DNA of 64,000 bases from positions 2,512 through 66,511 of the forward strand of contig JAHJSM010000003.1 of the NCBI GenBank assembly GCA_018830295.1, written 5' to 3'. Position numbers and translations under genes: made by a program. The notes under the pieces were generated by a model. The model saw nothing but the letters and a program-made list of their open reading frames with translations, was not told where the DNA came from and did no database searches. Shown here piece after piece: positions 33,568-59,000 of this stretch; within the stretch, counting starts at the first letter, position 1, and each line of letters starts with the position of its first letter. This stretch comes from Patescibacteria group bacterium (GTDB taxonomy: Bacteria; Patescibacteriota; Minisyncoccia; Portnoybacterales; UBA2143).

Positions 33568-33644
33568 GGGGGCTGCCCCCGCAACGGGAGCAGCCCCCAT
33601 CTTAATCCCAAGGGGACTGTCCTTCGCCGCGAGGGACAGTCCCC
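33568..33644. repeat. two GC hairpin units, intergenic (one of each type)
   Basis: gggggctgcccccgcaacgggagcagccccc ... ggggactgtccttcgccgcgagggacagtcccc. Confidence 0.85.
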
Positions 33645-34759: not shown

Positions 34760-34892
34760 GGGGACAGTCCCCGCCGCGAGGACTGTCCCCTTCTTAACAA
34801 AGGGACATTCCAAGGGGGGCAGTCCCCCGTCTCGGGGGCTGCCCCCGTCTTAATCTCAAGGGGACTGTCCCTCGCGGCGAGGGACAGTCCCC
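34760..34892. repeat. cluster of three GC hairpin units in divergent promoter region
   Basis: ggggacagtccccgccgcgaggactgtcccc / ggggggcagtcccccgtctcgggggctgccccc / ggggactgtccctcgcggcgagggacagtcccc. Confidence 0.85.
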
Positions 34893-35362: not shown

Positions 35363-36654
35363 TTCTCAACATCCAAACAGGCGCCGACAATCCCGTTTTG
35401 CGCCGAAAAGCCAAAGAAGTTAAAAAAATCAACTCTCAAATCAGAGAGCTTATTTTAAATATGAAGGAAACGCTTGAAAGCGACGGCAATTCCATCGGTT
35501 TAGCCGCTCCACAAGTGGGCAAATCACTGCGCATCATCGCAATCAGCCCCGAACTAAATGAAAAATCTATCATTTTGATCAATCCAAAAATCGTTAAAAC
35601 ATCGTTTAGAAAAATAGTTTTAGAAGAGGGCTGTTTAAGTTTACCTAATATTTCCATCCCCATTAAAAGACATTCCAAAATAACGGTCCAAGCACTCAAC
35701 GAAAAAGGCGAGCCAATCAAGATAAAAACCGAAGGCCTCGCCGCCCGAATTATCCAACACGAAATCGACCATTTAGAGGGTATTTTAATTATTGACTCCC
35801 TCTTGGGGACAGTCCCTCGCCACGAGGGACTGTCCCCGGATTATCTTAAAACAATTTTTATCGGGACTTCTGAATTTGCCGTTCCTGTTTTGGAGGCGCT
35901 TGTTCGCTGTTCATTGTTCGCCGTTCAATGCGTTATTACCGCTCCCGATAAACCCGCTCCCTCGCCGATTAAAATAGCCACTTTGCAAAACGGGTTGCCT
36001 ATCTTACAACCCGAAAAAATATCAAAAGCCGCGGTGAAAATATCCAATTTAAAGCCCGACTTAATCATCACCGCCTCTTATGGACAAATCATTCCAAAAA
36101 ATATTTTAGACATTCCAAAATACGGCTCCATTAACATCCACCCTTCGCTTTTGCCAAAATATCGCGGACCGTCCCCCATCCAAACGGCCATTTTGAACGG
36201 CGACAAAAATACTGGCATTTCCGTGATGCTTATGGACGAAAAAATGGACCACGGGCCGATTATCGCCCAAAAAAAAGTCGCTATAAAAAAGCGCGAAAAC
36301 TATCAGGACTTGGAAAAAAGATTATCTCTCCTCTCGGCAAATTTTTTGTTAAAGATTCTGCCACGATATATCCAAGGAAAAATTAATCCGAAAAAACAAA
36401 ACAATTCTAAAGCCAGTTATACTAAAATACTTTCCCGCCAAGACGGACAAATTAAACCAAAACAAACCGCCCAAGAAATTGAAAGAATGCTCTGCGCTTT
36501 TACGCCTTGGCCCGGCGTCTGGACTATTATTAAAAAACGCCGAGTAAAAATCCTCAAAGCGAAGGTCGTCCAAGGGCGACTTCTCTTAGAAATTGTCCAG
36601 CCCGAAGGCAAAAAACCAATGACCGCGGAGGAATTTTTTCGTGGATTAAGGTAA
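35344..36654 (+). CDS. def-fmt: peptide deformylase - methionyl-tRNA formyltransferase fusion
   Basis: Def motifs GLAAPQVG, EGCLSLP and HEIDHLEG are present. A hairpin-derived linker SLLGTVPRHEGLSPDYLK follows. The Fmt N-terminus IFIGTSEFAVPVLEAL lacks its own Met and continues to an Fmt C-terminal domain. Confidence 0.8.
   Translation: MEIRKMILNIQTGADNPVLRRKAKEVKKINSQIRELILNMKETLESDGNSIGLAAPQVGKSLRIIAISPELNEKSIILINPKIVKTSFRKIVLEEGCLSLPNISIPIKRHSKITVQALNEKGEPIKIKTEGLAARIIQHEIDHLEGILIIDSLLGTVPRHEGLSPDYLKTIFIGTSEFAVPVLEALVRCSLFAVQCVITAPDKPAPSPIKIATLQNGLPILQPEKISKAAVKISNLKPDLIITASYGQIIPKNILDIPKYGSINIHPSLLPKYRGPSPIQTAILNGDKNTGISVMLMDEKMDHGPIIAQKKVAIKKRENYQDLEKRLSLLSANFLLKILPRYIQGKINPKKQNNSKASYTKILSRQDGQIKPKQTAQEIERMLCAFTPWPGVWTIIKKRRVKILKAKVVQGRLLLEIVQPEGKKPMTAEEFFRGLR
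35805..35837. repeat. GC hairpin element exactly at def/fmt junction (in frame)
   Basis: ggggacagtccctcgccacgagggactgtcccc. Confidence 0.85.
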
Positions 36655-38144: not shown

Positions 38145-39155
38145 TTAACTCGCGTTTTTCATTATCTCTTTCACAATCTCCGCCACAAGGCGGGGATTTT
38201 CTTTTAGGTATTTTTTTGACGCTTCTACGCCCTGCCCCAATTTCGTTTCTCCGTAAGAAAACCAAGCGCCTGCTCTTTTAATCACGCCGAACTTAACGCC
38301 CGTATTAACAATGTCCCCGAGACGGGAAATTCCTTCATTGTAAAAAATATCAAACTCCGCCTGCCTAAAAGGAGGAGCAACTTTGTTTTTAACTACTTTA
38401 ACTTTCGTCCTATTGCCGATAATTTGCTCGCCCTGCTGAATTTTCGCCGAGCGACGAAGTTCTAAGCGAACCGAGGAATAAAACTTCAATGCCTTTCCGC
38501 CGGGCGTTTCTTCGGGGTTTCCGAAAACAATCCCTATTTTCATTCTAATTTGATTAATAAAAATAACAGTCGTTCCGCTTTTATGAACAATAGCGGTCAA
38601 TTTTCTTAACGCCTGCGACATAAGCCGCGCCTGTAAACCCATGTGCGACTGCCCCATTTCACCTTCAATTTCAGCTCTGGGCGTCAAAGCGGCAACCGAG
38701 TCAATTACAACTAAATCAACCGCCCCCGACCTGACTAAACTCTCCAAAATCTCCAATGCTTGCTCGCCTGTATCTGGCTGGGAAATAAACAAATCATTAA
38801 CTTTTACGCCAATTTTTTTGGCGTATTCCGGATCCAGAGCGTGTTCCGCGTCTATAAAGGCCGCCAAACCGCCTTTTTTTTGCGCCTCGGCAACAATATG
38901 AAGCGCCAGGGTGCTTTTGCCGCTTGACTCCATCCCAAAAATTTCAATAATTCTCCCGCGCGGCATTCCGCCAACCCCCAAAGCCAAATCCAGAGCGATT
39001 GAGCCCGTCGGGATAGCGTCAACATCAACATGCTTCGCGTCGCCCAATTTCATAATCGCGCCATCGCCAAAACGCCCCCTGATTTCATCAACCGTCGCGT
39101 CCAATATCTTTATTTTCTCCTCCCTCACCTCCACCGCTGTTTTTTGTTTAGACAT
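38145..39155 (-). CDS. recA: recombinase RecA
   Basis: [19 protein letters not shown], the L1 and L2 loops, 336 aa. Confidence 0.95.
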
Positions 39156-39259
39156 AAAAATTTTTAATTTCCAATTTTTAAAACTCTCAAATTTTTCTTA
39201 ATCTTGTTCTTGTTTTTCTTATTTTTCTTATTTGGAAATTGATAATTGAGAATTGAAAA

Positions 39260-41401
39260 TTATATCTCTTCTTCTCCCTTATCCTCAAAAACATCTCTCG
39301 CCTTCGCTCCATCGGATGGGCCGACTACGCCTCTATCTTCTAAAATATCAATCAGACGAGCGGCGCGGGCGTATCCAACCCTTAAACGCCTTTGGAGTAA
39401 GGACGCAGACGCTTTTCCGGCGCGGATAACTTCCGCTTTCGCTTCTTCGTAAAGCTCGTCGTCCGCTTCCGAACCGTCGGCGCTAAACGAAGTTCTTCTT
39501 GACTCTGTTCCGGAAGAATCCAACTCATCCTTATACTCCGGCTCGCAACCCTTTCTTAAATAATCCGTCACTTTTTTAATCTCTTTTTCTGAAACATATC
39601 CGCCCTGAACCCGAATCGGCTTAGCAGAATTTCCTGCCAAGAAAAGCATATCGCCGTTGCCTAATAATTTTTCTGCCCCGCCCATATCCAAAATCGTCCG
39701 CGAATCAATCTGTGAAGCAACTTGAAAAGCCATTCTTGAAGTAATATTCGCTTTAATTAAACCCGTAATTACTTCAACCGAAGGCCTTTGGGTCGCGACA
39801 ATCAGGTGAATCCCGACCGCGCGCGCCATTTGAGCGATTCTCACAATCGCTCCTTCTGCCTCGCGTCCATAAGACGACATTAGGTCCGCCAACTCGTCAA
39901 TCACAATCACGATATATGGTAACCGCTCTCCGTCTATATCCTTATTATAACTTCCAATATCCCGTTTCCCTGCCCCTTGAAGAACGCCAAACCGTCTTTC
40001 CATTTCCCCAACCGCCCACCGTAAAGCGCCGACTGCCTTGTCTGGCTTAACAATTACCGGCGTTAATAAATGAGGAATGTTGCTATACGCCGTTAACTCA
40101 ACCCTTTTCGGGTCAATTAAAATAAGTTTCAAATTTTCAGGCAAAGCGCGATAAAGTAAACTCAAAATAACATTATTCAAAGCAATCGTTTTGCCCGTTC
40201 CTGTCGCGCCGGAAACCAAGAGATGAGGCATTTGCGACAAATCAGCAAAGACCGGCTTGCCCGCCACATCGCGTCCTAAAGCGAGAACCAATCCCGCAGT
40301 GGATTCTTGAAAAGCGGGCCTCTCCAAAAGCGTTCTTAATCGCACCAAAACCATTGATTTATTGGGAATTTCTATCCCAACCAAAGACCTTTTGGGAATG
40401 GGCGCCTCTATTCTTAAGGGATGCGCCGCCAAAGCCAAAGCCAAATCATTTTGCAAAGAAGTAATTTTAGCAAGTTTAACTCCTTGGGCTGGCCTCAAAG
40501 TATATTGTGTCACCGTCGGTCCAACATTTACTTCCGCCATTTCCACTTCAATCCCAAAATTCTCCAGCGTTCTTTTTATAATATTAATATTCGCTTTAAT
40601 ATCGCCGCTCGTCGGCTGGCCGACATCTTTTTCCAAAAACTCAAGAGGAGGCAATTGAAAACCGCTAAATTGCTTGTTCAAACCGTCCGAAATTGAAACC
40701 ATAGGAATAACAGTCGCTTTTGCTTTCGCCTTTACATCGGGAGCCGCCTCTTTTCCTACAATATGGTCACCTCCAATTTCTGGCTTATTGTCTGGCAAAT
40801 CAGATTTTCTTTTAAGCCGTTGCCAAACGCTGTTTTTTACCTCAACAGCTAAAGATTCCTCTTTCTCGTCCTCCGAAGATTTGGCGGAGGAGGATTTAAC
40901 CGCCCGCGCCGGTATTAGAGAAATATTAAAAGTAATTAAAATAGAAATCGCCAAAACAGCGAACAGGACAACCAGTCCCGCCCAAAATCCCAGAAATTTA
41001 GAAGAGGGATAACCCAAAACCAATCCCAAATATCCGCCTTCAGCGGTCAAAATATGAAAAAGACCTAAAACACTGAAAATAAAAAGGGCCATTCCCGATA
41101 GAATCGTCCGATAAACAGGGTTGCTTCGCCCGCCAAAACCAAAACCAGGAAGCAAAACCGCCAGCCCAGCGAGAACAAAACTAATAGAAACCAAGAAAAA
41201 TCCCTTGCCAAAAAGCATTACGCTCAATTTGAAAAAATATTCGCCAAATGTCCCGGCCACGCCCAAAAAACTTAACAAACTAACAGCGGCAAAAGTGAAA
41301 AAAATAATCACCAAAACCCCCTTCTTGGTTTCAGGGTGGAGGAAAGAAATCTTCTTTTTAACGCCACCCTTTTTAAGTTTTTTTTTGGTCTTTTTGGGCA
41401 T
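39260..41401 (-). CDS. ftsK: DNA translocase FtsK
   Basis: N-terminal TMs are followed by the FtsK/SpoIIIE motor (VSGATGTGKT) and a C-terminal gamma domain (LLQRRLRVGYARAARLID). Confidence 0.9.
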   Translation of the reverse strand: MPKKTKKKLKKGGVKKKISFLHPETKKGVLVIIFFTFAAVSLLSFLGVAGTFGEYFFKLSVMLFGKGFFLVSISFVLAGLAVLLPGFGFGGRSNPVYRTILSGMALFIFSVLGLFHILTAEGGYLGLVLGYPSSKFLGFWAGLVVLFAVLAISILITFNISLIPARAVKSSSAKSSEDEKEESLAVEVKNSVWQRLKRKSDLPDNKPEIGGDHIVGKEAAPDVKAKAKATVIPMVSISDGLNKQFSGFQLPPLEFLEKDVGQPTSGDIKANINIIKRTLENFGIEVEMAEVNVGPTVTQYTLRPAQGVKLAKITSLQNDLALALAAHPLRIEAPIPKRSLVGIEIPNKSMVLVRLRTLLERPAFQESTAGLVLALGRDVAGKPVFADLSQMPHLLVSGATGTGKTIALNNVILSLLYRALPENLKLILIDPKRVELTAYSNIPHLLTPVIVKPDKAVGALRWAVGEMERRFGVLQGAGKRDIGSYNKDIDGERLPYIVIVIDELADLMSSYGREAEGAIVRIAQMARAVGIHLIVATQRPSVEVITGLIKANITSRMAFQVASQIDSRTILDMGGAEKLLGNGDMLFLAGNSAKPIRVQGGYVSEKEIKKVTDYLRKGCEPEYKDELDSSGTESRRTSFSADGSEADDELYEEAKAEVIRAGKASASLLQRRLRVGYARAARLIDILEDRGVVGPSDGAKARDVFEDKGEEEI

Positions 41402-41459: not shown

Positions 41460-44400
41460 CTATTTCCCGTATCCTGTTCCTGCTGGTATTAGTTTACCAA
41501 TAATTACATTTTCCTTCAACCCCTTTAATTTATCCTCTTTTCCTTGGATGCTGGCGTTAATCAAAACCTGCGTCGTTTGAATAAACGAAGCTGCCGAAAG
41601 AAAACTTTCCGTCGTCAAAGAAACCTTGGTAATACCAAGCAAAATCTGCTCGCCAGACGCAAGTTCTCCGCCTTTTGCCGCGGCCTCATTATTCTCCGCC
41701 GTAAAACGACTTTGTTCAACAATCTCATCCCCTAAAAGAGTCGTTGAGCCGGGGTTTTTGACTTTGACGCGAGAAAACATCTGGCGAATAATCATCTCTA
41801 TGTGCTTATCGTTGATATTTGCTCCGACAAACGCGTAAATTTGTTGAACCTCTTTCAGAATATATCTCTGAACCGCTTCCCTTCCCGCCACTTTATACAA
41901 ATCAGCCAAGTCAACATGCCCCTCTCCTAATTGCTGTCCTTTTCCAACCAAGTCGCCTTTTTCAATTTGCATCGCGATATGCGACGGAAGAGTATATTCC
42001 AAAACCGCTTTTTTATTCTTGTCTTTCTTTTGTTTCCCGTCATCCAAAACCTCTATCTGAACAATTCTCTGTGTTCCATTTTCAATAATATTTTTCACCT
42101 TGCCGTCCACTTCTGAAATGACGGTCTTGCCTTTGGGAACGCGCGCTTCAAAAATTTCCTCAATCCGAGGAAGACCCTGCGTAATATCCTGCCCGCCCGC
42201 GACACCGCCCGTGTGGAAGGTCCGCAAAGTCAACTGGGTCGCCGGCTCGCCAATCGCCTGCGCCGTCACAATTCCAACCGCCTCGCCTAATTCAATTAAC
42301 GCGTTTCTACCCAAATCATATCCATAACAACTTTGACAAACTCCATCCAACGACTTGCAAGCGATGACAGACCTAACTCTGACGCTTTTAACGCCCGCTT
42401 CATCTATAATCTGAGCGGCTTTTTGACTAATGATCTCGCCTGCTTTCGCCAACAATTTTTTCTTGCCGCCTTTGCCCGCCTCCGCGTAAATATTATCTAA
42501 CGCGATTCTCCCGACAATCCGATAAGCGAACGAAACTCCCAAATCTTCTTCGTCCTCGCGATAAATTTTAATCCCGGTCGTATCTCCGCAATCCTTTTCG
42601 CGAATGACCACATCCTGACAGACATCAACCAAGCGACGCGTCAAATACCCTGCTTGCGCCGTGTTCAGAGCCGTGTCAGCCAATCCCTTTCTGCCTCCAT
42701 GAGTGGAAATGAAATATTCCAAAACGCTCAAGCCCTCTTTATACGAATTTTTAATCGGCAGTTCAATAATTTCATTAGACGGGTTGACAACCAACCCTTT
42801 CATTCCCATCATTTGAGATAACTGTTTTAAAGACCCGCGCGCGCCCGAATCAAAAATACTGAAAACTGGGCCGTTTGGGTCAAGGACCTCCATTGTTTTT
42901 TTGGATATTTTATCGCTCACGCCCAGCCAAATCTCAATTACGCGCGCTCTTCTTTCGTCATCCGTCAACAACCCGTCGTCATATTGCCCCTGAACTTTAA
43001 CCGACTCGCGCGAGGCCTTTTCTAATTCTTCTTTTTTCTCTTTAGGAACTTGTAAATCATCCATGCCCCAACTAATGCCAGAAACCGAAGCGTATTTAAA
43101 GCCCATTCTCTTAAGTTTGTCTAAGATAACCGCTGTTTTTTTAATACCAAATTTATCAACTATTTCCGAGACCAATTTGCGGATTTCTTTTTTATTCATC
43201 GTCTTGTTGACAAACTCCATTCCTTCTGGCAAGGGCTCGTTAAAAATTACTCGCCCAATAGATGTTTCCACTAATTCTCCGTTCTCTAAGCGAACTTTGA
43301 CCCTCGCTTTCAAATGGACATCGCCAAAATGCTTCGCTAAAAGCGCCTCCGAAATGCCCGAAAAAATCTTCCCTTCGCCAACTAGCCCCTCCTCAATTTT
43401 TGTCATCCAGTAGCAACCCAAAACCATATCCAAAGAAGGCACCGCGACCGGTTCGCCCGTAGATGGCTTTAAAATATTGACCGAAGAAAGCATAATCTCC
43501 TTCGCCTCTTTTTGCGCCGCCTTGCCTAAAGGTAAATGAACTGCCATTTGGTCGCCGTCAAAGTCGGCGTTAAAAGCGCTACAAACAAGAGGATGAACCT
43601 GAATTGCTTTTCCTTCAATTAAAATCGGCTGGAAGGCCTGTATTCCCAAACGATGCAAAGTCGGCGCTCTGTTCAAAAGCACATATCTATTCTTGGTCAC
43701 TTCTTCTAAAATATCCCAAACCTCGTCAATTTCTTCCTCAATCAGCCGTCCTGCGCCTCTCACATTATGCGCCAACTCTCTCTCAACTAATTTGTTAATT
43801 ACAAACGGCTTGAAAAGTTCCAAGGCCATATATTTAGGCAATCCGCACTGGTTCAATTTTAAATCAGGACCAACAACAATAACTGAACGGCCTGAATAGT
43901 CAACTCTTTTTCCTAAAAGGTTTTGTCTAAATCTGCCCTGTTTGCCTTTAAGCATATCCGCCAACGATTTCAAAACGCGTTTTTGCCCGGTAGACGCGGC
44001 AACCGTCACTTGTCCGCGACGGCTCGTGTTGTCAATCAAAGCGTCAACCGCTTCCTGCAACATTCTTTTCTCGTTGCGGCAAATAACCTCCGGCGCTTTC
44101 AACTCCAAAAGCCGCTTTAAGCGGTTATTTCTATTAATCACTCGGCGATACAAATCATTGACATCAGAAGTCGCGTAACGGCTTCCATCCAATTGAACCA
44201 TCGGACGCAAATCAGGCGGCAAGACCGGCAAGACCGTCCAGAACATCCATTCCGGGCGAATTTTAGCGCGAATCATTCCCTCAATCAGTCGCAACCGCTT
44301 GAGCATTTTTGCCTTAATCGCCACGCTCGCCGTTTTCGCCTGGTCATCCAGTTTTTTAGCAAGCGCTTCTAAATTAATTCCCTCAAAAATTGTCCTTAAT

Positions 44401-45050
44401 GTTTCCGAACCCGTCCCCGCTTCAAAAACCTGCCCATATTTCATACTCAAAGCGCGATAATCAATTTCCGAAAGAATTTGATGTTTATATAGCCCCCTCA
44501 CTTCCCGAATCGCTGCGTCCTGCTGCTCTTTAAGGTTTTGTTTCTCACCCGCTTTAGGACCAATCTCTTTTAACTTCGTCTTATACTCCTTTTTAATTTC
44601 GCTCATCACCTCTCCTCTTTCTTCTTCGTTGATTTTAGTAATAATATACCCGGCGAAATAAATCACTTTTTCCAATTCCTGCGCCGAACGATCCAAAACC
44701 AAGCCCATTTTAGAAGGCAGACCCTTCAAAAACCAGATATGCGAAACAGGCACCGCTAAATTAATATGCCCCATTCTTTCGCGGCGAACATTTGAGCGCG
44801 TCACTTCAACTCCACATTTATCGCAAACAATTCCTTTGTAGCGAACGCGGCGATATTTGCCGCAATAACACTCCCAGTCCTTTTCTGGTCCAAAAATTTT
44901 CTCGCAAAACAAACCGTCTTTTTCGGCTCTCTGCGTCCTGTAATTAATCGTCTCCGGCTTAGTCACTTCCCCCCGCGACCACCCCAAAATTTCCTCTGGG
45001 GAGGCCAACTTCAACCGAATAGATTTGAAATCGCTAACTAATGTGCTCAT
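41460..45050 (-). CDS. rpoC: DNA-directed RNA polymerase subunit beta'
   Basis: LASPEEILGWS, a zinc finger CxxC...CxxC, NADFDGDQM and the trigger loop. The start is taken at MSTLVSDF. Confidence 0.95.
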   Translation of the reverse strand: MSTLVSDFKSIRLKLASPEEILGWSRGEVTKPETINYRTQRAEKDGLFCEKIFGPEKDWECYCGKYRRVRYKGIVCDKCGVEVTRSNVRRERMGHINLAVPVSHIWFLKGLPSKMGLVLDRSAQELEKVIYFAGYIITKINEEERGEVMSEIKKEYKTKLKEIGPKAGEKQNLKEQQDAAIREVRGLYKHQILSEIDYRALSMKYGQVFEAGTGSETLRTIFEGINLEALAKKLDDQAKTASVAIKAKMLKRLRLIEGMIRAKIRPEWMFWTVLPVLPPDLRPMVQLDGSRYATSDVNDLYRRVINRNNRLKRLLELKAPEVICRNEKRMLQEAVDALIDNTSRRGQVTVAASTGQKRVLKSLADMLKGKQGRFRQNLLGKRVDYSGRSVIVVGPDLKLNQCGLPKYMALELFKPFVINKLVERELAHNVRGAGRLIEEEIDEVWDILEEVTKNRYVLLNRAPTLHRLGIQAFQPILIEGKAIQVHPLVCSAFNADFDGDQMAVHLPLGKAAQKEAKEIMLSSVNILKPSTGEPVAVPSLDMVLGCYWMTKIEEGLVGEGKIFSGISEALLAKHFGDVHLKARVKVRLENGELVETSIGRVIFNEPLPEGMEFVNKTMNKKEIRKLVSEIVDKFGIKKTAVILDKLKRMGFKYASVSGISWGMDDLQVPKEKKEELEKASRESVKVQGQYDDGLLTDDERRARVIEIWLGVSDKISKKTMEVLDPNGPVFSIFDSGARGSLKQLSQMMGMKGLVVNPSNEIIELPIKNSYKEGLSVLEYFISTHGGRKGLADTALNTAQAGYLTRRLVDVCQDVVIREKDCGDTTGIKIYREDEEDLGVSFAYRIVGRIALDNIYAEAGKGGKKKLLAKAGEIISQKAAQIIDEAGVKSVRVRSVIACKSLDGVCQSCYGYDLGRNALIELGEAVGIVTAQAIGEPATQLTLRTFHTGGVAGGQDITQGLPRIEEIFEARVPKGKTVISEVDGKVKNIIENGTQRIVQIEVLDDGKQKKDKNKKAVLEYTLPSHIAMQIEKGDLVGKGQQLGEGHVDLADLYKVAGREAVQRYILKEVQQIYAFVGANINDKHIEMIIRQMFSRVKVKNPGSTTLLGDEIVEQSRFTAENNEAAAKGGELASGEQILLGITKVSLTTESFLSAASFIQTTQVLINASIQGKEDKLKGLKENVIIGKLIPAGTGYGK

Positions 45051-45060
45051 AAGATTTATA

Positions 45061-45089
45061 ATTATCAATTTTCAATTATCAATTTTCAA
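45061..45089 (-). promoter_or_regulatory. candidate sigma70-like promoter for rpoC (TTGAAA-N17-GATAAT) within TTGAAAATTG repeat block
   Basis: The minus strand reads TTGAAAATTGATAATTGAAAATTGATAAT ending 10 nt before the rpoC ATG. Similar blocks lie upstream of recA (about 39225-39255) and of the gene at 45112-45474 (about 45490-45535). Confidence 0.3.
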
Positions 45090-45111
45090 AAAATTTCCAA
45101 TGCTTTAATTT

Positions 45112-45474
45112 TCAATTATCGGCTTTTTGGTTTTGTTTCATTGTTGAAGATATTTTATTAAATATCAAAGCAAATTCGTGAGCTTCCAACCATAATTTTC
45201 TAAGTTTATCTTTTTCTTCTGGATTTGATTGCGCCATTATTTCTATCCAATATTTGGTTTCTTGAATTTCTTTTCTGCAAATAAATATTTTGTTCTTAAA
45301 ATCTTTATTAGAACTGGCATTATTTGCTTCGCAATAATTAGCCCCAATACTTGTCGCTGATCTAATAAGTTGCGATATTAAATTTCTGTTTATTTCATCT
45401 TTTCTTATTTCTCTTAGCAGTATTATAATATTCTTGCTAAAATTCTTTGTTCTGTCTTCTAAATCATACTTCAT
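45112..45474 (-). CDS. four-helix-bundle protein (23S rRNA intervening-sequence protein family)
   Basis: SQLIRSATSIGANYCEA...KDFKNKIFICRKEIQETKYWIEI matches the family consensus (SQLrRAavSIpsNIAEG...ELETQL). Its position between rpoB and rpoC is unusual. Confidence 0.75.
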   Translation of the reverse strand: MKYDLEDRTKNFSKNIIILLREIRKDEINRNLISQLIRSATSIGANYCEANNASSNKDFKNKIFICRKEIQETKYWIEIMAQSNPEEKDKLRKLWLEAHEFALIFNKISSTMKQNQKADN

Positions 45475-45537
45475 GTTTTGAAAATTCAGTCATTGAAAAT
45501 TGTTTGAAAATTGAGAATTGAAAATTGAAAATTTTGA

Positions 45538-48500
45538 CTACTTCCCTGTCAGTTCCATCCCCAGTCCCAGCGCCTTTAACTCGCTTAACAAAACATTAAA
45601 GGAAGCCGGAATGTTCGGCGCTTGGATTTCTCTTCCGCGAATAATCGCGTCGTAAACATTCGTCCGCCCGCTCACATCGTCCGATTTAATCGTTAAAATT
45701 TCCTGCAAAGTGTGCGCCGCGCCGTATCCTTCCAACGCCCAAACCTCCATTTCCCCAAATCTCTGCCCGCCAAATTGCGCTTTTCCGCCCAAGGGCTGTT
45801 GAGTAATCAAGGAATAAGGCCCAACTGAACGCATGTGCATCTTGTCTTCAACCAAATGCAATAATTTCAAAATATATGTATATCCGACCGTAATCGGCTG
45901 TTCAAACGGCTCGCCATTTCGCCCATCGTATAAAATAACTTTTCCGCTTTCGGGCAAGCCAGCTTTCTTTAATTCGCTTTTAATTTCGCTTTCCTTAAAT
46001 CCAGCCAAAGCCGGAGTAATCGCTTGATACCCCAATTCCTTCGCCGCCCAACCAAGATGTGTTTCCAAAATTTGACCGATGTTCATCCGCGAAGCAACGC
46101 CCAAAGGATTAAGAATAATTTCCACCGGCGTTCCGTCCGCCAAATGAGGCATATCTTCTTCTGGAAGAATTTTAGAAATGACGCCCTTGTTTCCGTGCCG
46201 GCCAGCAAGTTTGTCGCCCACCGAAATTTTGCGCAATTGCGCCACTTCCACTTGGATGCTCCGAATTACTCCGCTCTGCAATTTGTCGCCATTATCGCGC
46301 GAGAAAATTTTAATTCCGACGACCCGGCCTCTTTTTCCATGCGGCATTCGCAAAGAAGTGTCTTTAACATCGCGCGCTTTCTCTCCAAAAATCGCCTGCA
46401 ATAATCTTTCTTCCGCCGTCAAATCGGTTTCTCCTTTGGGAGAAATTTTGCCAACTAAAATATCATTAGGTCCGACTTCCGCTCCAACGCGGACAATCCC
46501 CTCTTCGTCTAAATCCTTGAGTCGGTCTTCGCCCACATTAGGAATATCAGGCGTGGTCGTTTCTGGCCCTAATTTTGTTTCCCGGACGAAGCAGGTAAAA
46601 CTTTCAATATGAATTGAGGTAAATCGGTCGTCTTTGACTAATTTCTCAGAAAGAATAATCGCGTCTTCAAAATTGTACCCTCGCCATGACATAAAAGCGA
46701 CCAAAAGATTTTGCCCCAGAGCCAGCCGTCCCTGGTCGGTGGAGGCGCCATCCGCTAAAATATCATCTTTCTTAACCCTCTGTCCTTTTTGAACAAGTGG
46801 ATGCTGACAAACGCAAGTATATTGGTTTGTTCGCGTAAAAGAACGCAAATAATATGTTTTTAATTTTCCTTTTTTGGGTCTAACCGCGATATGCTCCGCG
46901 TCAACCTCTTCAATCGTTCCGTCCTCCTCGGCAATAATCAAACTACCCGAATCCCTCGCCGCTCGGTCTTCCATGCCCGTCCCAACCAAAGGCGCCTGCG
47001 GTTTAACGCAAGAAACCGCCTGTCTCTGCATATTTGAGCCCATCAAAGCGCGGTTGCTATCGTCGTGTTCCAAAAACGGAATCAAAGAAGTAGCAACACT
47101 AATTGGCTGCTGCCGCGAAACATCAATAAAATCAACCTTGGAGCGGTCAATGACGCTCGGCTGTCCCTTAACCCGCGCTTCCACGATTTTGTCAGCCAGC
47201 CGCCCGTCCGCCCCAATAGCAACCCCCTTATGCGCGATATTGTATTTCTCCTCTTCGGCGGCATTAAGACAAACAACCTCTTTTGTCGGTTTCCCTTTAA
47301 CTACTCTGCGATAAGGCGTTTCAAGAAAACCATATTCATTCAAACGCGCTGTCACAGTTAAATGCCCAATCAAACCAATGTTCGGACCTTCCGAAGTATG
47401 AATTGGACAAATTCTTCCGTAGTGACTTGAGTGCACATCTCTCACTTCAAACCCCGCTCTTTCCCTCGTCAAACCACCCGGACCCATCGCCGATAACCGT
47501 CGTTTATGCTCCAGTTCTGCCAAAGGATTGTGCTGGTCCATAAATTGCGACAATTGCGAAGAGGAAAAAAATTCTTTCACTGAAGCAATAAAAGGCCGAA
47601 CATTAATCAACTGCCCCGGCATCATTTCATAAGGGTCAAGCGTGGACATTCGGTCGCGGATAATTCTTTCTGTCCGCGCCATTCCGACTCGCAATTTATT
47701 CTGCAATAATTCCCCCATGGACTTGACGCGGCGATTGCCCAAATGGTCAATATCGTCCGGCGTCGCGCCTGGCGTATTATTTAAAACAATAATTTCCCGA
47801 ATAATATTCTTAATATCCTCCAAACAAAGCACCCTCTTTTTTTGGGGACAGTCCCCCGTCTTCGGGGGCTGCCCCCAATTCCCCACCCTCTGCCCTAACT
47901 TCCATCTTCCCACTTCTCCCAAATCGTATCTTTCAAAAGAAAGCATCGCTTCAATAAATCCACGCGCGTTATCTTCCGTTGCTAAATCGCCCGGACGAAT
48001 TCTTTTGTAAACCGAAACAAACGACTCGCCCGCCGTTTTAGCTGAGTCCTTTTCAATTGTCGCTTCAATGTAATCCGTTTCGCCATTGTTAATATCGGAG
48101 AAAAATCCCTTGATCTCATCGTTAGATAAATTGTCATTTCCTTCAAGCGCGGCAAAAACCCGCATTAAAGCGGTCACTGAAACTTTTCTCTTTCTATCAA
48201 TTTTTACGGCAATCGCGCCGTCCGAATCCGTTTCAAATTCCAACCAAGCGCCGCGGCTTGGAATAACTTTTGCTCCAAATCTTTGCTGGCCTCTTAAAAA
48301 TTGAGAAACAAAAAACGCCCCAGAAGATCTAATTAGTTGCGAAATCACGACCCTCTCCACGGCGTTCACGATAAATGTCCCGCGGTCAGTCATCACGGGA
48401 AAATCGCCAAAGAAAATTTCTTGCTCTTTGACTTCTTTTGTTTTTCTGTTAATCAACTTGACTCGACAATACAAAGACGCCTCGTAAGAAACATTGCGAG

Positions 48501-48798
48501 TTCTGGCTTCTCTTTCGTCATATTTCGGCTCATCCAGACGATAGTCGCCAAAAGAAAGTTCAAGTTCTTTGCCTCCCCAATCCTTAATCGGGGAAAACTC
48601 ATCTAAAAGTTCGCGCAGGCCTTTTTCCCAAAACCACCGATACGAATTTTTTTGTATCTCTACGAGGTTGGGCAATTCATACTCATTCCGCTGGGAAGCG
48701 GAAGCCGCGCTAAATCGCTTAGGGAGACAGCCAACACTTTGACCGTCCCAACATTGAGAATGGACTTTTTTAGACATAAAATAAAAAATCTTACGCAA
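45538..48798 (-). CDS. rpoB: DNA-directed RNA polymerase subunit beta, with in-frame hairpin-element insertion
   Basis: Conserved blocks include [19 protein letters not shown] and the rifampicin region [14 protein letters not shown] 33-nt hairpin element at about 47844-47876 is translated as [11 protein letters not shown]. Confidence 0.95.
47844..47876. repeat. GC hairpin element inside rpoB (in frame)
   Basis: ggggacagtcccccgtcttcgggggctgccccc is a chimeric unit with one arm of each type. Confidence 0.85.
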
Positions 48799-48973
48799 AA
48801 CAAAACCCTTCCTTCACGCTTCAGAAAGGTCGTTTAAAAAAATATTCAAAATTATTCCCGACAATCCCGCCAAAAAGACATAAAAAGTAGGCGGCTAAAT
48901 TAAATAAACCTAAACTACCCTCCAAGTATACATAACCAAAAAAATAAGTCAAGCCCTTCACCGGGGACCCGAC

Positions 48974-49049
48974 GGGAGCAGCCCCCGCAACGAGGGCTGC
49001 CCCCTTTCCCTCTCTCGGGGACAGTCCCCCGTCTTCGGGGGCTGCCCCC
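48974..49049. repeat. cluster of ~3 GC hairpin units upstream of rpoB
   Basis: gggagcagcccccgcaacgagggctgccccc ... ggggacagtcccccgtcttcgggggctgccccc. Confidence 0.8.
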
Positions 49050-49057
49050 ATCTTAGT

Positions 49058-51511
49058 TTATTCGACTACCGGCGCCTCCAATTCCTGTATTATCTTCATA
49101 ATATTCTCATTCCCCGGGACCAACTGGTCTACGATCTTAAATTGAATCAACGCGTCCGCGTTTCGTCCCGCAACTTGATAGGACAACGCTAAAGCGTATC
49201 GCCCATTAGCGTATTGCGGCGTAATAATCACCGCCTGCTCAAACATAGGAATGGCCTCGCTCACTCTGTTGAGGTTGAAATAGAGACGGCCCATCTGGAA
49301 ATAAATTTCAGTCGCCGCGCCCGCCAATTCCGAACCCCTCTGGAAACTCACCCCTTTTAATTTCGTTAAAACCGATTGCGTCTGCTCAAGCGCTCTTTCA
49401 AGCTCGCCCTTCTGCTCATAAGCCAACGCCAATTGAATATGCGCGTCTAAATAATTAGCTTTCAAATCAACCGCCTTTTGACAATAAGCGACTGTTTCGT
49501 CCCAATTCTCTTTTTCAACCGTCTCGTCTTCCGTAATTAAATTCAACCGACAAAGTTCCCGATAAAAAACAGGATTGCTCGGCTCTAACTCCAACGCTTT
49601 CGCGAACGCCTCCATAGCGAAAGGCAAAGTTCCGCCAACCAAGCCACGCGCGTCCCGATAAACCGCTCCCAAATTTTCCCAAGCGCTCACGGAATTGGGA
49701 CTCAAATCGGTCGCCACTCTCGCTTGCTGAATAGAACCGGCGGCAAGTGTTTGTAACAATTCAATATTTCTCTCCGCCTCCGCCTTTCGCGCCTCTTCCC
49801 AAGCGGAAACCAAATAAATCTGCGACAAATTCTGCCGATAACTCGCCCTGTATCTGTTCAAATTAACTATTTCTTCGGCGCGGCGAATTAAATCTTGCCT
49901 GTCAGTCGCCGTCTGAATTAATTTTGCTTCCGCTAAATAAAATCTGCCCCCTAAATAAAAGAGGCCCGCCATCACAAAGATCAAAATCAACAAAACAACA
50001 TTAATGACCAATCCCACTTCTGGCAGTTTTTTGAAAGAAAAAGATATTTTCTTGCAAGGTTTCTCTTGAAGACCTTGCCAACTGACGATACCTAATGCCG
50101 TAAAGAGCCAGAAATAGAAAAGCAAAACCGTATTTTGCGAATAGACAAATTGAGAAATAAATAAAATTAACCAGAAAAGAAGAAAAGGCAGAATAATCAG
50201 TTCGGCGGCGGCGACATCCTTACTTTTCTTAAGCCGCCACAAAGACAAAACCATAATCAGCAAGAACATAAAGACAACCGTTAAATAACTTAAAATTCCC
50301 AAAATGCCAAGCGCCCCCGTCGTTTCCATAAAATAATTTGACGCCCTGTCAAACCTAATGTTCCAAAACTGACTGTTGTTAAATTCAGCCGGCTTAAACT
50401 TGGCGAAATTAGCTAAAAAAGTTCCTTCTCCCGAACCCAGAATTGGGTATTCTTTGAGCGTCTGCCATGTAATCGTATTTGTCATTGCCCCGTCCAAAAT
50501 CAGTTCCTTGGGTATATCCTGGTTAATATTGTTAAAATCGCTCAATAACTCCACCCGGCCCGGCAAATTAACAATAAAAATTCCGGCGATAATTAGCAAA
50601 GCGATCGGCAACATCAACGCGTTGACTCTCTTGCGAAAAATTCGCGTCCAAAAAGCGATAATTAACAAAAGAGCCATCGCCGCCGCTAAAGAAACCCAAG
50701 CCGCCCAAAAGTTAATGACAACCAAAAGAATAACCGACGCCGCCAATAATCCGTAACTTAAGACCTTTGCTAAAACGCCTCTTTTTTTGCCCTGTAAAAA
50801 GACGCCTGTGATCAGTCCGACAATCGCCGCCAAAAATATGCTTAACCCCTCAAACGAGCCGCTCACTGGGTTAAAAGAACGCAAATTCATAATCTCAGGC
50901 AGACCCGGAATTTTGCTCCAAAGATTAAAAACAGAAAGATAAGCCGCCAAAACAGCCACCCAGCCCGAGACCAAAACTAAATTAATTACCGTCCTCAAAC
51001 AAACCCCAGGCGAACAAATCAACATTCTTTTCTTTGTTGTCGCGACTGCGTTTATATCAGGGGGCAGTCCCCCGTCTTCGGGGGCTGCCCCCGTCTTAGA
51101 AACCATCACATTATTCACCACGACAAAATAAAGCAAACACATCGCCAATAAACCAATCGCCGAATCCGAAAACTTCCCATACCCGCCCAGCCACGAAGAA
51201 ACACTATTAATTGAAAAAACAGCGCTCAAAATAACCATGAGCATAAAAACCAAAACCCAAATATCTAAAGGCGTCCGACGAAAGACAACTTTCTTTCGAA
51301 CAATAATTGTTTTCGCGAGCCAAGCGAACAAGGCCAAAGAGGCCAAAACAAAAAGCAAATATTGCTTATTAAACTCAAACACTTCCGCTGTCCAAGGCAG
51401 CCAAAATAAAGGCAGCAAAAGAACCAGCGCGTAAACCGAATACTTAATCGCGAAGTTGTATATCTTCCTCATCTTTTTTTTTGCCTCTCGAATTGCCGCT
51501 GGCTTTTTCAA
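49058..51511 (-). CDS. O-antigen ligase/polymerase-like polytopic membrane protein with C-terminal TPR repeats
   Basis: More than 10 TM segments with a Wzy_C-like central part, followed by C-terminal TPR-like repeats (AHIQLALAYEQKGELERALEQ). An in-frame hairpin sits at about 51060-51092. Confidence 0.65.
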   Translation of the reverse strand: MKKPAAIREAKKKMRKIYNFAIKYSVYALVLLLPLFWLPWTAEVFEFNKQYLLFVLASLALFAWLAKTIIVRKKVVFRRTPLDIWVLVFMLMVILSAVFSINSVSSWLGGYGKFSDSAIGLLAMCLLYFVVVNNVMVSKTGAAPEDGGLPPDINAVATTKKRMLICSPGVCLRTVINLVLVSGWVAVLAAYLSVFNLWSKIPGLPEIMNLRSFNPVSGSFEGLSIFLAAIVGLITGVFLQGKKRGVLAKVLSYGLLAASVILLVVINFWAAWVSLAAAMALLLIIAFWTRIFRKRVNALMLPIALLIIAGIFIVNLPGRVELLSDFNNINQDIPKELILDGAMTNTITWQTLKEYPILGSGEGTFLANFAKFKPAEFNNSQFWNIRFDRASNYFMETTGALGILGILSYLTVVFMFLLIMVLSLWRLKKSKDVAAAELIILPFLLFWLILFISQFVYSQNTVLLFYFWLFTALGIVSWQGLQEKPCKKISFSFKKLPEVGLVINVVLLILIFVMAGLFYLGGRFYLAEAKLIQTATDRQDLIRRAEEIVNLNRYRASYRQNLSQIYLVSAWEEARKAEAERNIELLQTLAAGSIQQARVATDLSPNSVSAWENLGAVYRDARGLVGGTLPFAMEAFAKALELEPSNPVFYRELCRLNLITEDETVEKENWDETVAYCQKAVDLKANYLDAHIQLALAYEQKGELERALEQTQSVLTKLKGVSFQRGSELAGAATEIYFQMGRLYFNLNRVSEAIPMFEQAVIITPQYANGRYALALSYQVAGRNADALIQFKIVDQLVPGNENIMKIIQELEAPVVE
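51060..51092. repeat. GC hairpin element inside O-antigen-ligase-like CDS
   Basis: gggggcagtcccccgtcttcgggggctgccccc. Confidence 0.85.
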
Positions 51512-51551: not shown

Positions 51552-51774
51552 GGGGACAGTCCCCTCTTGGGGACTGTCCCCGGATTCTCTTTTTTTATTA
51601 TACCAAAAAATTGAAAAAATAAAAGCCCGAATTATCCCCATCAGGTTTTTCCGATGGGAGCAGCCCCCGCCGCGAGGGCTGCCCCCTTTCCCTTTCTCGG
51701 GGGCAGCCCCCCGTCCTCGGGGGCTGCCCCCATTTCGCCACGAGGGGACAGTCCCCTCTGGGGGACTGTCCCCG
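51552..51774. repeat. large intergenic array of >=5 GC hairpin units
   Basis: ggggacagtcccctcttggggactgtcccc ... gggagcagcccccgccgcgagggctgccccc ... gggggcagccccccgtcctcgggggctgccccc ... ggggacagtcccctctgggggactgtcccc. Confidence 0.85.
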
Positions 51775-53743: not shown

Positions 53744-53765
53744 AAATTTAAATTAGGGGGCTGCC

Positions 53766-53821
53766 CCCGCAACGGGGGCAGCCCCCATCCCCTCTCTTGG
53801 GGACTGTCCCCGTCTTAGCTA
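53766..53821. repeat. two GC hairpin units between dprA stop and comM start
   Basis: gggggctgcccccgcaacgggggcagccccc ... ggggactgtcccc. Confidence 0.85.
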
Positions 53822-54689
53822 TTTAGTATTATACTTCCCTCCTCTTAATTTAATTAGCCCCCTAATTTCCATCAACGATAACTTAACACTTAATTCCGAA
53901 ACCGACATTTCCAAACCGCGCGATAATTCATCTATCCCCATCGGCTCCTGCTCTAATTTTCTTAAAATCCTGGCTTCGGGGGCTGCCCCCGCAACGGGGG
54001 CAGCCCCCATCCCCTCTCTTGGGGACAGTCCCTCGTCTTCGGGGGCTGCCCCCATCCCCCTTAAAACATCCTCCGCGCTCAAAACCATTTCCGCCCCATT
54101 CTTAATTAATAAATTAGTCCCCTTTGACAACGAACCCGTTATCGGCCCTGGCGTGGCAAAAACCTTTCGGCCAAACTTCTTCGCGCAATTAGCAGTAATC
54201 AAACAACCGCTCTTTTCTCCCGCCTCAATCACCAAAAGCGCCTTTGATAAACCAGCCACAATTCTGTTTCTTTGAGGATAAGTCCAAAGCGCCGGCTTCA
54301 TCTCCCCTTCATATTCAGAAATTATTAGCCCCCCGCTCTCCAAAATACTCTTATAAAGTTTTTTTTTGATGAGCCGGATGAATTAAATCAATCCCGCATG
54401 GCATCACCGCAATCGTTCGCCCGCCCGCTTTAATCGCCGCTTCATGAGCCGCCGCATCGCCTCCATACATAAATCCAGAAACAATCGTAATTCCAGCCAT
54501 CGCGATTTCGCCAACTATCTGCTCCATTATCCGCTCGCCATAAGAAGTCAATCTCCTGCTCCCAATAACCGCCAAACAATTTTCAAAAATACTCAAGTCA
54601 AAATCGCCTTTATAATACAATTGCTTAGGCGCGCCCTTAGTTTGTTTTAAAAGTTCAGGATACTCTTCATCTTCCTTGTAAATTATCAT
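53819..54689 (-). pseudogene. dprA: DNA processing protein DprA interrupted by frameshift at A9/T9 homopolymer (or sequencing error/transcriptional slippage site)
   Basis: Two adjacent ORFs, 54351-54689 and 53819-54343, together cover DprA: the Rossmann part, then GGLIISEYEGE...RNRIVAGLS, then a winged helix. Removing one A/T from the run at about 54352-54362 joins them as ...HQKK-LYKSILESGG.... The downstream part also carries an in-frame hairpin cluster. Confidence 0.7.
53976..54055. repeat. three GC hairpin units inside dprA C-terminal region (in frame)
   Basis: gggggctgcccccgcaacgggggcagccccc ... ggggacagtccctcgtcttcgggggctgccccc, translated as MGAAPEDEGLSPREGMGAAPVAGAAPE. Confidence 0.85.
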
Positions 54690-56015: not shown

Positions 56016-59000
56016 TTAGTATCCCACCGCATCCGCAGAAGGCGTTTCTAGCTCTTCAACCACCGGTTCCTCGGCAACAGGTTCCTCAGTCACCGGCTCA
56101 GGAGAGGACACCTCCACCACCGGCTCCGGCTCGTCCGCTTCAGGGACTTCTTCGGGGGCTGCCCCCGCAACGGGGGCAGCCCCCTCTTCATCAACCACCG
56201 GGGGCAGTCCCTCGTCCGCGGGGGCTGCTCCCTCTTCATCAACCACAGGTTCCTCAACCACCGGTTCAACCACCGGGGGCAGTCCCTCGTCCGCGGGGGC
56301 TGCTCCCTCTTCATCAACCACCGGCTCCTCCGCAACCGCCCCGCATTCCCCGGCGACTGTTTGCGCCGCCCCACTCGCAACAAAGAAACAATACGGTAGT
56401 CCCGTCACTCTATCATACAATGTAATCCCTGCCTGCTCTTCAACTCCTCCTCCAACCTTCAATTGCTCTGTTTCAATATTTTTCGCCTTAATTTTATCAA
56501 CAACTAAAACTCCTTCCTCGTCCAAAACCAATCCCAATTCCGCCAAATCCATCCTTAATTCCTCCAGCGAATCCACTTCAACCAAATCCCCATTTTCATC
56601 CCGCTCCACTGTCAACAACGCCTCCAATTCCTCTAATCTATTATTCAACGCTTTAACCCCCGCTAAAGCAAACGAAGTATAATCATACAAACTAACCGAC
56701 TCCCCATCAGAAATCATCCCAATAGGGGGCAGTCCCCCGTCGCGGGGGCTGCTCCCGTCCGCAACTTCCCCTCCCCCATACCTCCCCATTTCCATCCCCG
56801 CAATCAGCCCTAAAATCTCAGCGTAATCCGCCTCCTCTAAATATGTAACTTCCATTTCATCCGCGCGCGGCAAATAGACATCCCATCCGTCAGCAATCGC
56901 GCTCCCCGCGCCCCGCCCAATCGTCAAGATATTCGTCGGCGACGAAGTAGCAATCCCAAACCGCCCCATCGTATCCAAAACCAACCCCACAGGGGGCAGA
57001 GGGGGCAGTCCCCCGTCGCGGGGGCTGCTCCCGTCCCATGCCTCCACCAACCTAATCAACCCCGCCTCCTCCAACTTCAGTGTTAATCCGTCCGTCAACT
57101 GCTCCATTCCCTCCATCCGCGCGTCAATCTCCTCAAACTGCTCTGGAATAACATCTCTAATATCCAACGCCAAATCGGAAATTTCATCCATCGCGAGCGT
57201 TAATTTAGCGTCAATCAAAAGCAACTGCGGAGAAACAATTTCGTTAATATCATCCTCTAAGTTCAAATTATCAATCGCTCCAGCAATCAAGATATTAACT
57301 TCATCTTCAATCTCCATCGCCGCGACCCGCTCCGTCACTTTATCTTCCACCTCTTCCACTGTGAGCGACTTATTCCGCCGCGAAATCAAAACATTAATCA
57401 CCCCTTCGCCTTCTTTAAGTCCCTCAAGCGCTACCCCAACCGTCGGGTCCCCCGCCCCTGCCCGCATAATATACCCTGGAACCGAAGCCGAAGTAAGCGA
57501 ATCCCCCGGGCGAATAGGTCCGCCTTCCGCAGAGACCTTCGCTGGCACCTGCCCAAGCATTCCAATAATAGCGTAATGCGGATTGTCTTCCCGCCTTTCA
57601 TCAGAAGGAGCGTTCCCCAAAAATGCCGGATTAGTTGAAACAATACCCATGATATTTCCATCAGCCGCCCGTTCGCACCGCTTGACCGCGTTTTCCCGTT
57701 CAATATCAACGCAAACCGCCTCGCCTGATTTCAAATCGGTATCAATGGAATAATAGTATTCAGCGTAGTCAGCCGAACCGGAAGTCCAAGCGTTGGTCGC
57801 GTTGACATAAGCCACATTAACGCCGTCGCTATTATGGTCAACTGTCAGCCGATAATCTGGCGTCGTGTCCCCGATGCCGACGTTGCCGCTATTTCTTTTG
57901 ACTGCAATTCCAAGAATTTCCGACCCAGCATCATAACCGACGATTTTAAGCACATAATTTGCTTCATCAAAAAGTATTTTAGCACCGTATGTGGAAAGGC
58001 CACGTTCCATAAAAGAGATTCCTTTATTGGTTCCCTCGGGGATATTCAAAGATAACAATTCATTTGGACTCGTCGTCCCGATGCCGACGTTGCCCGAGGC
58101 GTTTATACGCATTCGTTCCTTAATACTGGAACTATCATTTGTGTGGAAAGATAAATAACCAGTAGCAGAACCGTCAGTCGCAGATTCTTTTCTGCCCGCA
58201 ATTGCTCCAAAAATCTGTTTGCTCCCCGCACTGTTGTAAAAACCTCCCATACCGATTGCACCGCCTTTGTCTATGGCAAAAGAATCGCTGGTCATTGCCG
58301 CAATGTGAACCTGTGCATCTCCATTAAGTCCATCCGCCAAATTCTGATTGGCTTTGACAACATCTAAGGTTGTCCCCGGACTCACTGTCCCGATGCCGAT
58401 ATTACCCGCCGAAGTGACAACGAAGGAGGGCGTTGCTCCAACTGTGAAATCCCCACCAATATACATAGCTCCAGTAGTAGTTGCATTGCCATCAACCGTT
58501 AAATTACTTCCAAAGTGACCTGCTCCTTGAGTAAATAGACCCGTAGTAGAAGAAGCATATCCTGTTGTAACTAAATTCCCCCCTGAAGTAACCGTCAATA
58601 GATTTGCGCCGGTGGATGAGGCAATAGTAAATATATCTGAACTACCAGCTGTGCCTTGAATAGATAGTTTAGATAGTGGCGTTGTTGTTCCTATGCCGAC
58701 GTTGCCGCCGACAACTGATAACGTCTCAGTAAATGCACCACTATTTCCATAGCCAATTCCTACTCTACTCGCACTGTTTACGGAAAAAATTTGCAACAGA
58801 TTATTTTGAATACCAAACCCGTAACCAGTTCCCGCGGCATTGTCATATAATGCAATCTTATTTCCCACTGCTGTACCTAATGACAATGGAAAACTCGGCC
58901 CCGTCGTCCCGATGCCGACGTTGCCGCTAAATACTGCCTTACCTCCTATACTTAAAGTATCAGTGGTAGTTGCCGAACCCATTGTCAATCCAAAGGCGGT

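Follow-up and report, generated by a model that had tools for sequence, protein, structure and literature searches.

A four-helix-bundle gene between rpoB and rpoC

Few bacterial genes are linked as stably as rpoB and rpoC. Here we describe a locus where they are separated by a small open reading frame (ORF) encoding a four-helix-bundle (4HB) protein of the 23S rRNA intervening sequence (IVS) protein, or S23p, family, together with the inverted repeats that surround this ORF. The DNA examined from the source genome, a Patescibacteria group bacterium (assembly GCA_018830295.1), is a 64-kb stretch (contig JAHJSM010000003.1, positions 2,512 to 66,511), which we refer to as the window and within which all coordinates are given unless a locus label precedes them. 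On its minus strand we see rpoB as the upstream host gene (45538-48798; NF001616, 1508 bits; start codon as called, unrefined), then the 120-aa 4HB ORF (45112-45474), and then rpoC as the downstream host gene (41460-45050, with its ATG at 45050-45048; TIGR02386, 1583 bits). Because the same rpoB-4HB-rpoC arrangement, with identical spacing, is present in five independent public assemblies (L182-L186), an assembly artefact can be excluded.

The small gene carries the existing annotation 'four helix bundle protein', and an initial annotation made from the letters of the window had assigned it to the 23S rRNA IVS-protein family and proposed that it separates rpoB from rpoC. The separation is borne out by the ORF coordinates, the hidden Markov model (HMM) scores and the five assemblies, and the family assignment by agreement between HMM scores and structure prediction. 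In HMM searches the ORF lies above both curated cut-offs, at 60.5 bits for PF05635 (cut-off 33.8) and 77.6 bits for TIGR02436 (cut-off 24). An AlphaFold2 model generated with 28 homologues has a predicted local distance difference test score (pLDDT) of 92, and comprises helices at residues 6-20, 27-51, 56-83 and 85-119. Its best Foldseek structural matches are the S23-family structures 2RLD (TM-score 0.77-0.85) and 2GSC (0.78-0.83), and phmmer comparison of the 120-aa protein with 2RLD gave 7.8e-12. These are followed by Avd (4DWL), a protein of diversity-generating retroelements (DGRs), with a TM-score of 0.69-0.75 at about 9% identity. The motif RxxxSxxxNxxE is found within RSATSIGANYCE as R38, S42, N46 and E49, and these four columns are invariant or nearly so in the homologue alignment; in the published form of the family motif, GxxRxxxSxxxNxxE (PMC3936711), there is a leading G, which is replaced by Q in the window protein. 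Solved homologues have five chains per structure entry. A PADLOC defence-system scan of the protein gave no match. A large protein collection holds 2352 relatives; identities of 65-86% are seen for many of them, from Moranbacteria, Falkowbacteria, Yonathbacteria and other Patescibacteria.

Inverted heptamer arms enclose the gene

The ORF lies at the centre of a 474-nt unit on the minus strand (45060-45533), hereafter the cassette, which consists of a 5' arm, the 4HB ORF and a 3' arm, and whose limits are given by an inverted repeat, by the RNA fold, and by the end of homology to the related locus L092 described below. The 5' arm (45478-45533) reads AATTTTC AATTTTC AATTCTC AATTTTC followed by AAACAATTTTCAATG..AATTTTCAA, and the 3' arm (45060-45115) reads ..CATTGGAAATTTTTT followed by GAAAATT GATAATT GAAAATT GATAATT. 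The two arms are mutual reverse complements over 56 nt, with 88% complementarity and a separation of 362 nt, and they form the longest inverted repeat of the entire window. The initial annotation had seen repeat arrays on both flanks of the gene, which stands, and their mirror-image relation had gone unnoticed. It had also drawn attention to the repeat motif, which is indeed over-represented: the window has 10 copies of TTGAAAATTG where 1.15 would be expected, and none of 100 shuffles reaches that count.

The cassette occupies the whole rpoB-rpoC spacer, save 4 nt past the rpoB stop codon, where the 5' arm starts, and 9 nt ahead of the rpoC ATG. The 5' arm ends 3 nt ahead of the 4HB ATG, and the first heptad of the 3' arm contains the 4HB stop codon TGA. 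In RNA folding, the spacer gives a single long stem around the ORF (-94 kcal/mol, z = -4.4), and none of 100 shuffled sequences is as stable. On both flanks of the ORF we see arrays of period 7 that resemble the tandem heptamers of the Coxiella IVS, and around it complementary terminal sequences predicted to form a stem, as IVSs also have.

The insertion is lineage-specific

A survey of metagenomic loci retrieved with the rpoC N-terminus gave 80 loci, 79 of them informative. In 78 of the 79, rpoB adjoins rpoC, mostly with gaps of 0-140 nt, and a 4HB gene was found in none of those 78 junctions. An orthologous cassette after rpoB is present only in the close relative L092/L093 (rpoB 86% identical), and the L092 ORF is 84-88% identical to that of the window at the protein level, depending on the alignment. 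Homology between the window and L092 spans the whole element and breaks off precisely where the 3' arm has its outer end, which fixes the element boundary. The arms of the two copies differ by heptamer-scale indels, and variation in heptamer number is likewise reported among Coxiella strains (PMC4990558).

Beyond the 3' arm, L092 (3400-5427) has a convergent TPR/Wzy_C gene in place of rpoC, 80% identical to the window gene at 49058-51511, and in a second sample (L093) the contig stops at the arm. At this right junction, L092 could have undergone a genuine rearrangement at the repeat, or the assembly could be chimeric there.

The window is itself empty at two places that are filled in other genomes, namely the syntenic spacer between an aminoacyl-tRNA synthetase (aaRS) gene and serS (28560-28600), filled in L001, and positions 53744-53818, filled in L043. 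Overall, the comparison of synteny in related genomes shows that the insertion in the rpoB-rpoC spacer is lineage-specific. The earlier proposal that the gene is a small insertion, outside the design of the rpoBC operon, agrees with its absence from all 78 adjoining junctions and with the homologues that carry the same flanks at unrelated sites.

A different selfish element was observed in the same junction of L097, the closest rpoB relative in the metagenome scan. Its rpoB-rpoC spacer of 913 nt (L097:1588-2500) holds a 238-aa ORF for an IS200-like Y1 transposase (PF01797), bracketed by GC-rich hairpins (TTTAGGAGCCTCGCTCCTAAAG).

The same unit recurs at unrelated sites and in other phyla

Family statistics were calculated for 69 unique 4HB copies, most of them drawn from 77 genome loci. 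In other Patescibacteria the same arms surround homologues of 65-87% identity at unrelated sites, and the flanks travel with the gene: L001 has a copy in the spacer separating a class II aaRS gene from serS, L005 has one flanked by giant-protein genes, and in L094 it lies upstream of murJ. Inverted-repeat scores between the two flanks of the same copy exceed the shuffle mean by more than three standard deviations in 52 of the 69 copies. Arm-pairing scores are 50 for cognate arms, 37 for non-cognate arms and 22 for shuffled arms; although better on average, the cognate arm is the single best partner in only 15 copies, because most copies from the candidate phyla radiation (CPR) share the same heptamers. 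A lag of 7 is the strongest period in 55/69 upstream and 56/69 downstream flanks (about 80%). Less than 160 nt away from 4HB genes, the density of runs of at least three AATTNNC heptads is 0.65 per kb; in the remainder of these loci it is 0.006 per kb, and control rpoBC loci totalling 390 kb give 0.003 per kb.

The spacer between pilC (T2SSF) and a prepilin gene (N_methyl) holds a cassette in seven species-level genomes (L015, L020, L023, L035, L037, L063 and L086), as either an old, vertically inherited insertion or the product of an insertion hot spot. Several loci have two or three diverged 4HB copies in a stretch of 3-4 kb, and frameshifts are seen in some copies. In one Patescibacteria contig (L040:1396-5022), three diverged copies lie within ~3.6 kb, with nested hairpin-like heptamer arrays in the spacers.

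The heptamer sequence itself is variable. The distant copies L042, L050, L070, L078 and L088 have other heptamers, and their two sides are still complementary. The comparison with other phyla used five complete plasmid records. The 4HB gene of Dolichospermum is flanked by AATTCGT x4 opposite ACGAATT x4, and that of Nostoc punctiforme by AATTCGC x4 opposite GCGAATT x4; in Planktothrix, AATCCCC and AATCGTA arrays lie opposite their own complements, and in Chlorohelix ATGAAGG lies opposite TTCATAA. The flank pattern of the fifth record, from Bernardetia, is ambiguous. On the Dolichospermum, Planktothrix and Chlorohelix plasmids (L177, L179 and L181), the cassette sits between helicase-related and DNA methyltransferase genes, all co-directional, and the Planktothrix locus has an extra heptamer array ahead of the next gene.

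ORF-less hairpins and solo arrays

Three hairpins of 120-140 nt carry cassette arms around no ORF (L114, L018 and L074), giving the family the combination of terminal inverted repeats and ORF-less derivatives that is characteristic of transposable elements of the miniature inverted-repeat type (MITEs). The L018 hairpin has a fold z-score of -5.2, and that of L074, which lies directly after a tRNA-like 3' end, has z = -7.3. The L114 hairpin (L114:2355-2490; ~137 nt, z = -4.9), with AATTTTC/GAAAATT arms, fills the rpoB-rpoC spacer of another Patescibacterium, and represents either an independent occupation of the junction or a deletion derivative.

The window was searched by nhmmer with arm profiles built from 44 other copies. 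Four places match: the two cassette arms (E = 1e-9 to 1e-12; 8.7e-12 for the 5' arm and 5.5e-10 for the 3' arm), an array between ftsK and recA, and an array inside a family 2 glycosyltransferase (GT2) gene. The initial annotation had recognised the same motif upstream of recA and in the GT2 gene, and we locate it at 39232-39261 and 5749-5780, respectively, with arm-profile E values of about 1e-7 relating both to the arms. The first solo array (39228-39268, minus strand; E = 3.3e-7) reads AATTTTC AATTCTC AATTATC AATTTCC, beginning at the stop codon of ftsK, and may be the decayed relic of a copy without an ORF. In the same spacer (39156-39268), the array is followed by an A/G-rich 9-nt repeat and a degenerate stretch resembling a 3' arm before the recA ATG. 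A hairpin upstream of recA was considered and rejected, as the fold of 39150-39270 is insignificant (z = +0.5).

The second solo array (5747-5793, minus strand; E = 3e-8 to 8e-8) has four perfect AATTTTC heptads, with 4.6 perfect copies at 5749-5780. It is in frame and encodes EKFSIFNFQFSIKV within the glycosyltransferase domain, so that an arm-like array appears to be tolerated inside the GT2 coding sequence. In the GT2 protein (gene at 5017-5952, minus strand), EKFSIFNFQFSIKV falls between the motifs DNGS and NLGFSEGNN.

Selection, orientation and transcription

The 4HB ORF is under purifying selection, with a ratio of nonsynonymous to synonymous substitution rates (dN/dS) of 0.21 against the L092 orthologue and about 0.1 in more distant pairs with estimable dS. 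Conservation is higher in the arms than at synonymous sites. The non-coding flanks of cassettes at different sites are ~75-90% identical, a figure inflated by low sequence complexity, whereas synonymous sites differ at 66-95%; the contrast is nonetheless large. In 53 of 63 cases (84%) the cassette is read in the same direction as the genes on either side of it, compared to a baseline of 65% for gene triples in the same loci (p = 5e-4). No terminator-like site was found on the coding strand between rpoB and rpoC. Upstream of rpoB there is a candidate operon promoter, TTGACT-16-TATACT (48925-48952, minus strand; consensus match only), which could be the source of read-through into the cassette and rpoC.

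A probable portable cassette of the intervening-sequence type

In short, complementary arms fit tightly around the ORF, this combination is found again at unrelated sites and in other phyla, and there are miniatures that have no ORF. We consider it reasonably probable that the element is a portable selfish cassette of the ORF-bearing 23S rRNA IVS type, co-transcribed with rpoBC, and that its stem is a likely target of RNase III. The proposed link to true IVSs draws on anatomy, protein family and literature. In one lineage of Patescibacteria, the cassette would have come to reside in the rpoB-rpoC spacer instead of in rRNA. Presumably lacking a promoter or terminator of its own, it would depend on read-through from the rpoB promoter, and in the transcript the arms would pair to form a stem of about 55-65 bp. 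RNase III cleavage has been shown experimentally for the IVSs of Coxiella, Leptospira and Salmonella, and by analogy the enzyme would cut this stem, separating the rpoB and rpoC messages and releasing that of the 4HB gene. Solved relatives of the encoded protein are pentamers, and the protein itself probably binds the heptamer arrays.

Several observations weigh against this interpretation. Only 3 nt separate the 4HB start codon from the stem, and an obvious Shine-Dalgarno sequence is lacking. Mismatches in the stems of the 69 copies show no excess of G:U over A:C (98 vs 113), so that a mark of selection acting on RNA structure as such is missing; complementarity may be kept at the DNA level. 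A motif search found no RNase III gene within the window. Inspection of the junctions, where AT-rich repeats blur the boundaries, found no target-site duplication, and no mobility enzyme was identified, with no transposase beside any copy. None of the fetched loci is rRNA-resident; 16 of them, with long stretches of non-coding flank, were scanned with Rfam, and one tRNA was the only match.

Some of these points would suit a DNA-level transposable element, whose arms would be terminal inverted repeats for a transposase or recombinase supplied in trans, with the 4HB gene as cargo or cofactor, the RNA stem as incidental, and the ORF-less hairpins as its MITEs. This would account for the inverted terminal arms, the miniatures, the presence/absence polymorphism, the lack of a G:U excess, the conservation of arm sequence beyond what pairing needs, and the exact break of L092 homology at the outer arm end. 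We nevertheless regard it as doubtful: that no copy has an associated transposase and that no target-site duplication was found count against a DNA element as well, classical IVS representatives of the family undergo RNA processing, and the enrichment of co-orientation with host transcription is unneeded for such an element, though expression of the ORF could explain it. Within the IVS-type interpretation too, selection on the arms may act mainly on DNA, for mobility, or mainly on RNA, for processing.

The promoter-like match beside rpoC

The initial annotation had read the repeats differently, as a promoter brought along by the insertion and now driving rpoC. The underlying sequence match is real: within the 3' arm, TTGAAA-17-GATAAT (45061-45089, minus strand) fits the consensus at 10 of 12 positions and ends 10 nt ahead of the rpoC ATG. 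Outward matches of at least 9/12 are also seen in 33 of the 69 3' flanks, compared to about 19 in shuffled flanks, and rpoC would need a start of its own if the stem were left uncut by RNase III or blocked read-through.

The match is, however, an automatic consequence of the repeat period. Any run of at least four TTGAAAA heptads gives TTGAAA-N17-GAAAAT, and the GATAATT variant improves the -10 hexamer. A mirror match is present on the 5' arm (45504-45532, plus strand), where it runs antisense into rpoB, and across the family the mirror side has outward matches about as often (29/69). Matches that reach 10/12 occur in only 9 of the 69 copies, against about 4 in shuffled flanks. The six promoter-like sites in the region are not above chance (4.0 +/- 2.4 in shuffles), the GC-containing heptamers of relatives in other phyla have no promoter resemblance, and an equally good promoter-like site lies upstream of rpoB. 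An outward sigma-70-type promoter in the rpoC-proximal array as the present driver of rpoC is thus unlikely, and the claim that the repeats are there as a promoter is not sustained. The repeats are primarily the terminal inverted repeats of the element. Judged from its sequence, the promoter-like match is best taken as a property of these AT-rich heptamers and not as the reason for the repeats, and promoter activity toward rpoC is possible as a side-effect.

Two further explanations fare far worse. A 4HB protein domesticated by the host to act on RNA polymerase or on rpoBC expression would fit the gene's place within the rpoBC operon and the purifying selection it is under, but this is very improbable given that the gene is absent from 78 of the 79 related rpoBC junctions and that near-identical cassettes lie beside unrelated genes (aaRS, pilC, murJ, helicase/methylase pairs and cas genes). 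More improbable still is an Avd accessory gene of a DGR, notwithstanding the resemblance of PF05635 proteins to Avd (PMC10053308) and the match of our model to 4DWL, as the gene is flanked directly by rpoB and rpoC, a template/variable repeat pair was not seen, and the 64 kb contain no ORF resembling a reverse transcriptase (YxDD within a frame of 200 aa or more).

Other repeats in the window

A second repeat family was observed in the spacers of the window, consisting of GC-rich palindromes of ~31-33 nt (GGGGACTGTCCC..GGGACAGTCCCC and GGGGGCTGCCCCCGCAACGGGGGCAGCCCCC) at 18497-18529, 18886-18918, 32730-32762, 33568-33644, 34860-34892, 35805-35837, 48990-49050, 51552-51773, 53756-53786 and 53978-54008. 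In an otherwise AT-rich genome, they resemble repetitive extragenic palindromic (REP) sequences or terminator hairpins. A very large minus-strand ORF of 2656 aa (56016-63986) contains a 75-nt tandem repeat at 56191-56330.

Relation to known elements and implications

The closest known counterpart is the Coxiella IVS, an element of 428 nt with a terminal inverted-repeat stem and a variable number of tandem GACAGAT heptamers before the S23p ATG, which is cut by RNase III at the first repeat (PMC4990558). The cassette is similar in size (474 nt, compared to 428-444 nt in Coxiella), and shares with it the variable-number tandem heptamers in the arm directly upstream of the ATG, an ORF with a poor or absent ribosome-binding site, and a predicted reliance on host read-through. 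A terminal inverted-repeat stem around an S23p/4HB ORF is common to the cassette and the ORF-bearing IVSs of Coxiella and Leptospira. The cassette differs from 23S rRNA IVSs in lying in the spacer of an mRNA operon and not in helix 25 or 45 of 23S rRNA. Its stem is longer than that of the Coxiella IVS (56 nt vs 28 bp) and AU-rich, its ORF is under purifying selection whereas the Coxiella ORF is decaying, and excision by RNase III, known in Coxiella, is here predicted by analogy. ORFs of the type 23S_rRNA_IVP are also described within 16S and 23S rRNA insertions of CPR bacteria (PMC11270868).

The ORF-less hairpins L114, L018 and L074, lying between co-directional genes, recall the short ORF-less IVSs of Salmonella, Campylobacter and other bacteria, as well as MITE/REP-like hairpins. 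Unlike these, they share their arms with a protein-coding cassette and have tandem heptamers in place of a unique palindrome. Heptameric repeats have been described as GGGAATC in Xanthomonas, GGGGAYT in Nostoc, and the short tandemly repeated repetitive (STRR) sequences of cyanobacteria, in arrays of ~4 units that lie mostly between co-oriented genes and often form convergent inverted pairs (PMC4692102). Their positions are not conserved between related species, and they were treated as simple-sequence repeats that form G-quadruplexes, with no link to 4HB genes (PMC4692102). The arms of the cassette likewise have about four heptamer units, and arrays of this kind border the 4HB genes of Planktothrix and Nostoc; the link to 4HB genes is seen here in only four of the five non-CPR loci. 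Our literature search for heptamer repeats together with this gene family found the link only in the Coxiella IVS paper. With Avd, a nucleic-acid-binding cofactor, the 4HB protein has in common the four-helix-bundle fold and homologues that crystallise with five chains; it differs in having no accompanying reverse transcriptase or template repeat, and in sequence. 4HB genes wedged in cas operons have been interpreted as functional associations (PMC3936711).

ORF-bearing IVSs and the family's resemblance to Avd were known already. What appears to be new is the full IVS architecture as a general portable cassette in mRNA operon spacers, across phyla, with ORF-less miniatures, and inside the rpoB-rpoC junction. 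The finding means that, in the reduced genomes of Patescibacteria, this junction tolerates insertions, namely a selfish cassette with a predicted long double-stranded RNA stem, an IS200-like gene, and an ORF-less hairpin.

Taking all copies together, we raise as a tentative possibility, which we would not yet call likely, that 4HB genes across phyla are the coding core of one ancient and widespread class of mobile cassettes with inverted, lineage-specific heptamer ends. If this is true, its copies residing in rRNA would be the classical 23S rRNA IVSs, the cyanobacterial and Xanthomonas heptameric repeats would be cassette arms or ORF-less relics, and the 4HB genes in cas and restriction-modification operons would count as additional insertions rather than functional partners. 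A pentameric protein would read arrays of ~4-5 heptamers, and host transcription and RNase III would be used in the life cycle. A common explanation may exist for subjects that the literature consulted handles apart from one another: the origin of ORF-bearing rRNA IVSs, the function of the S23p/4HB family, the over-representation of tandem heptamers in some bacterial genomes, and the presence of these genes inside cas and restriction-modification operons. If 4HB genes are insertions, guilt-by-association annotations of the family would need revision, and the family would offer a tractable model for a mobile element that has no transposase.

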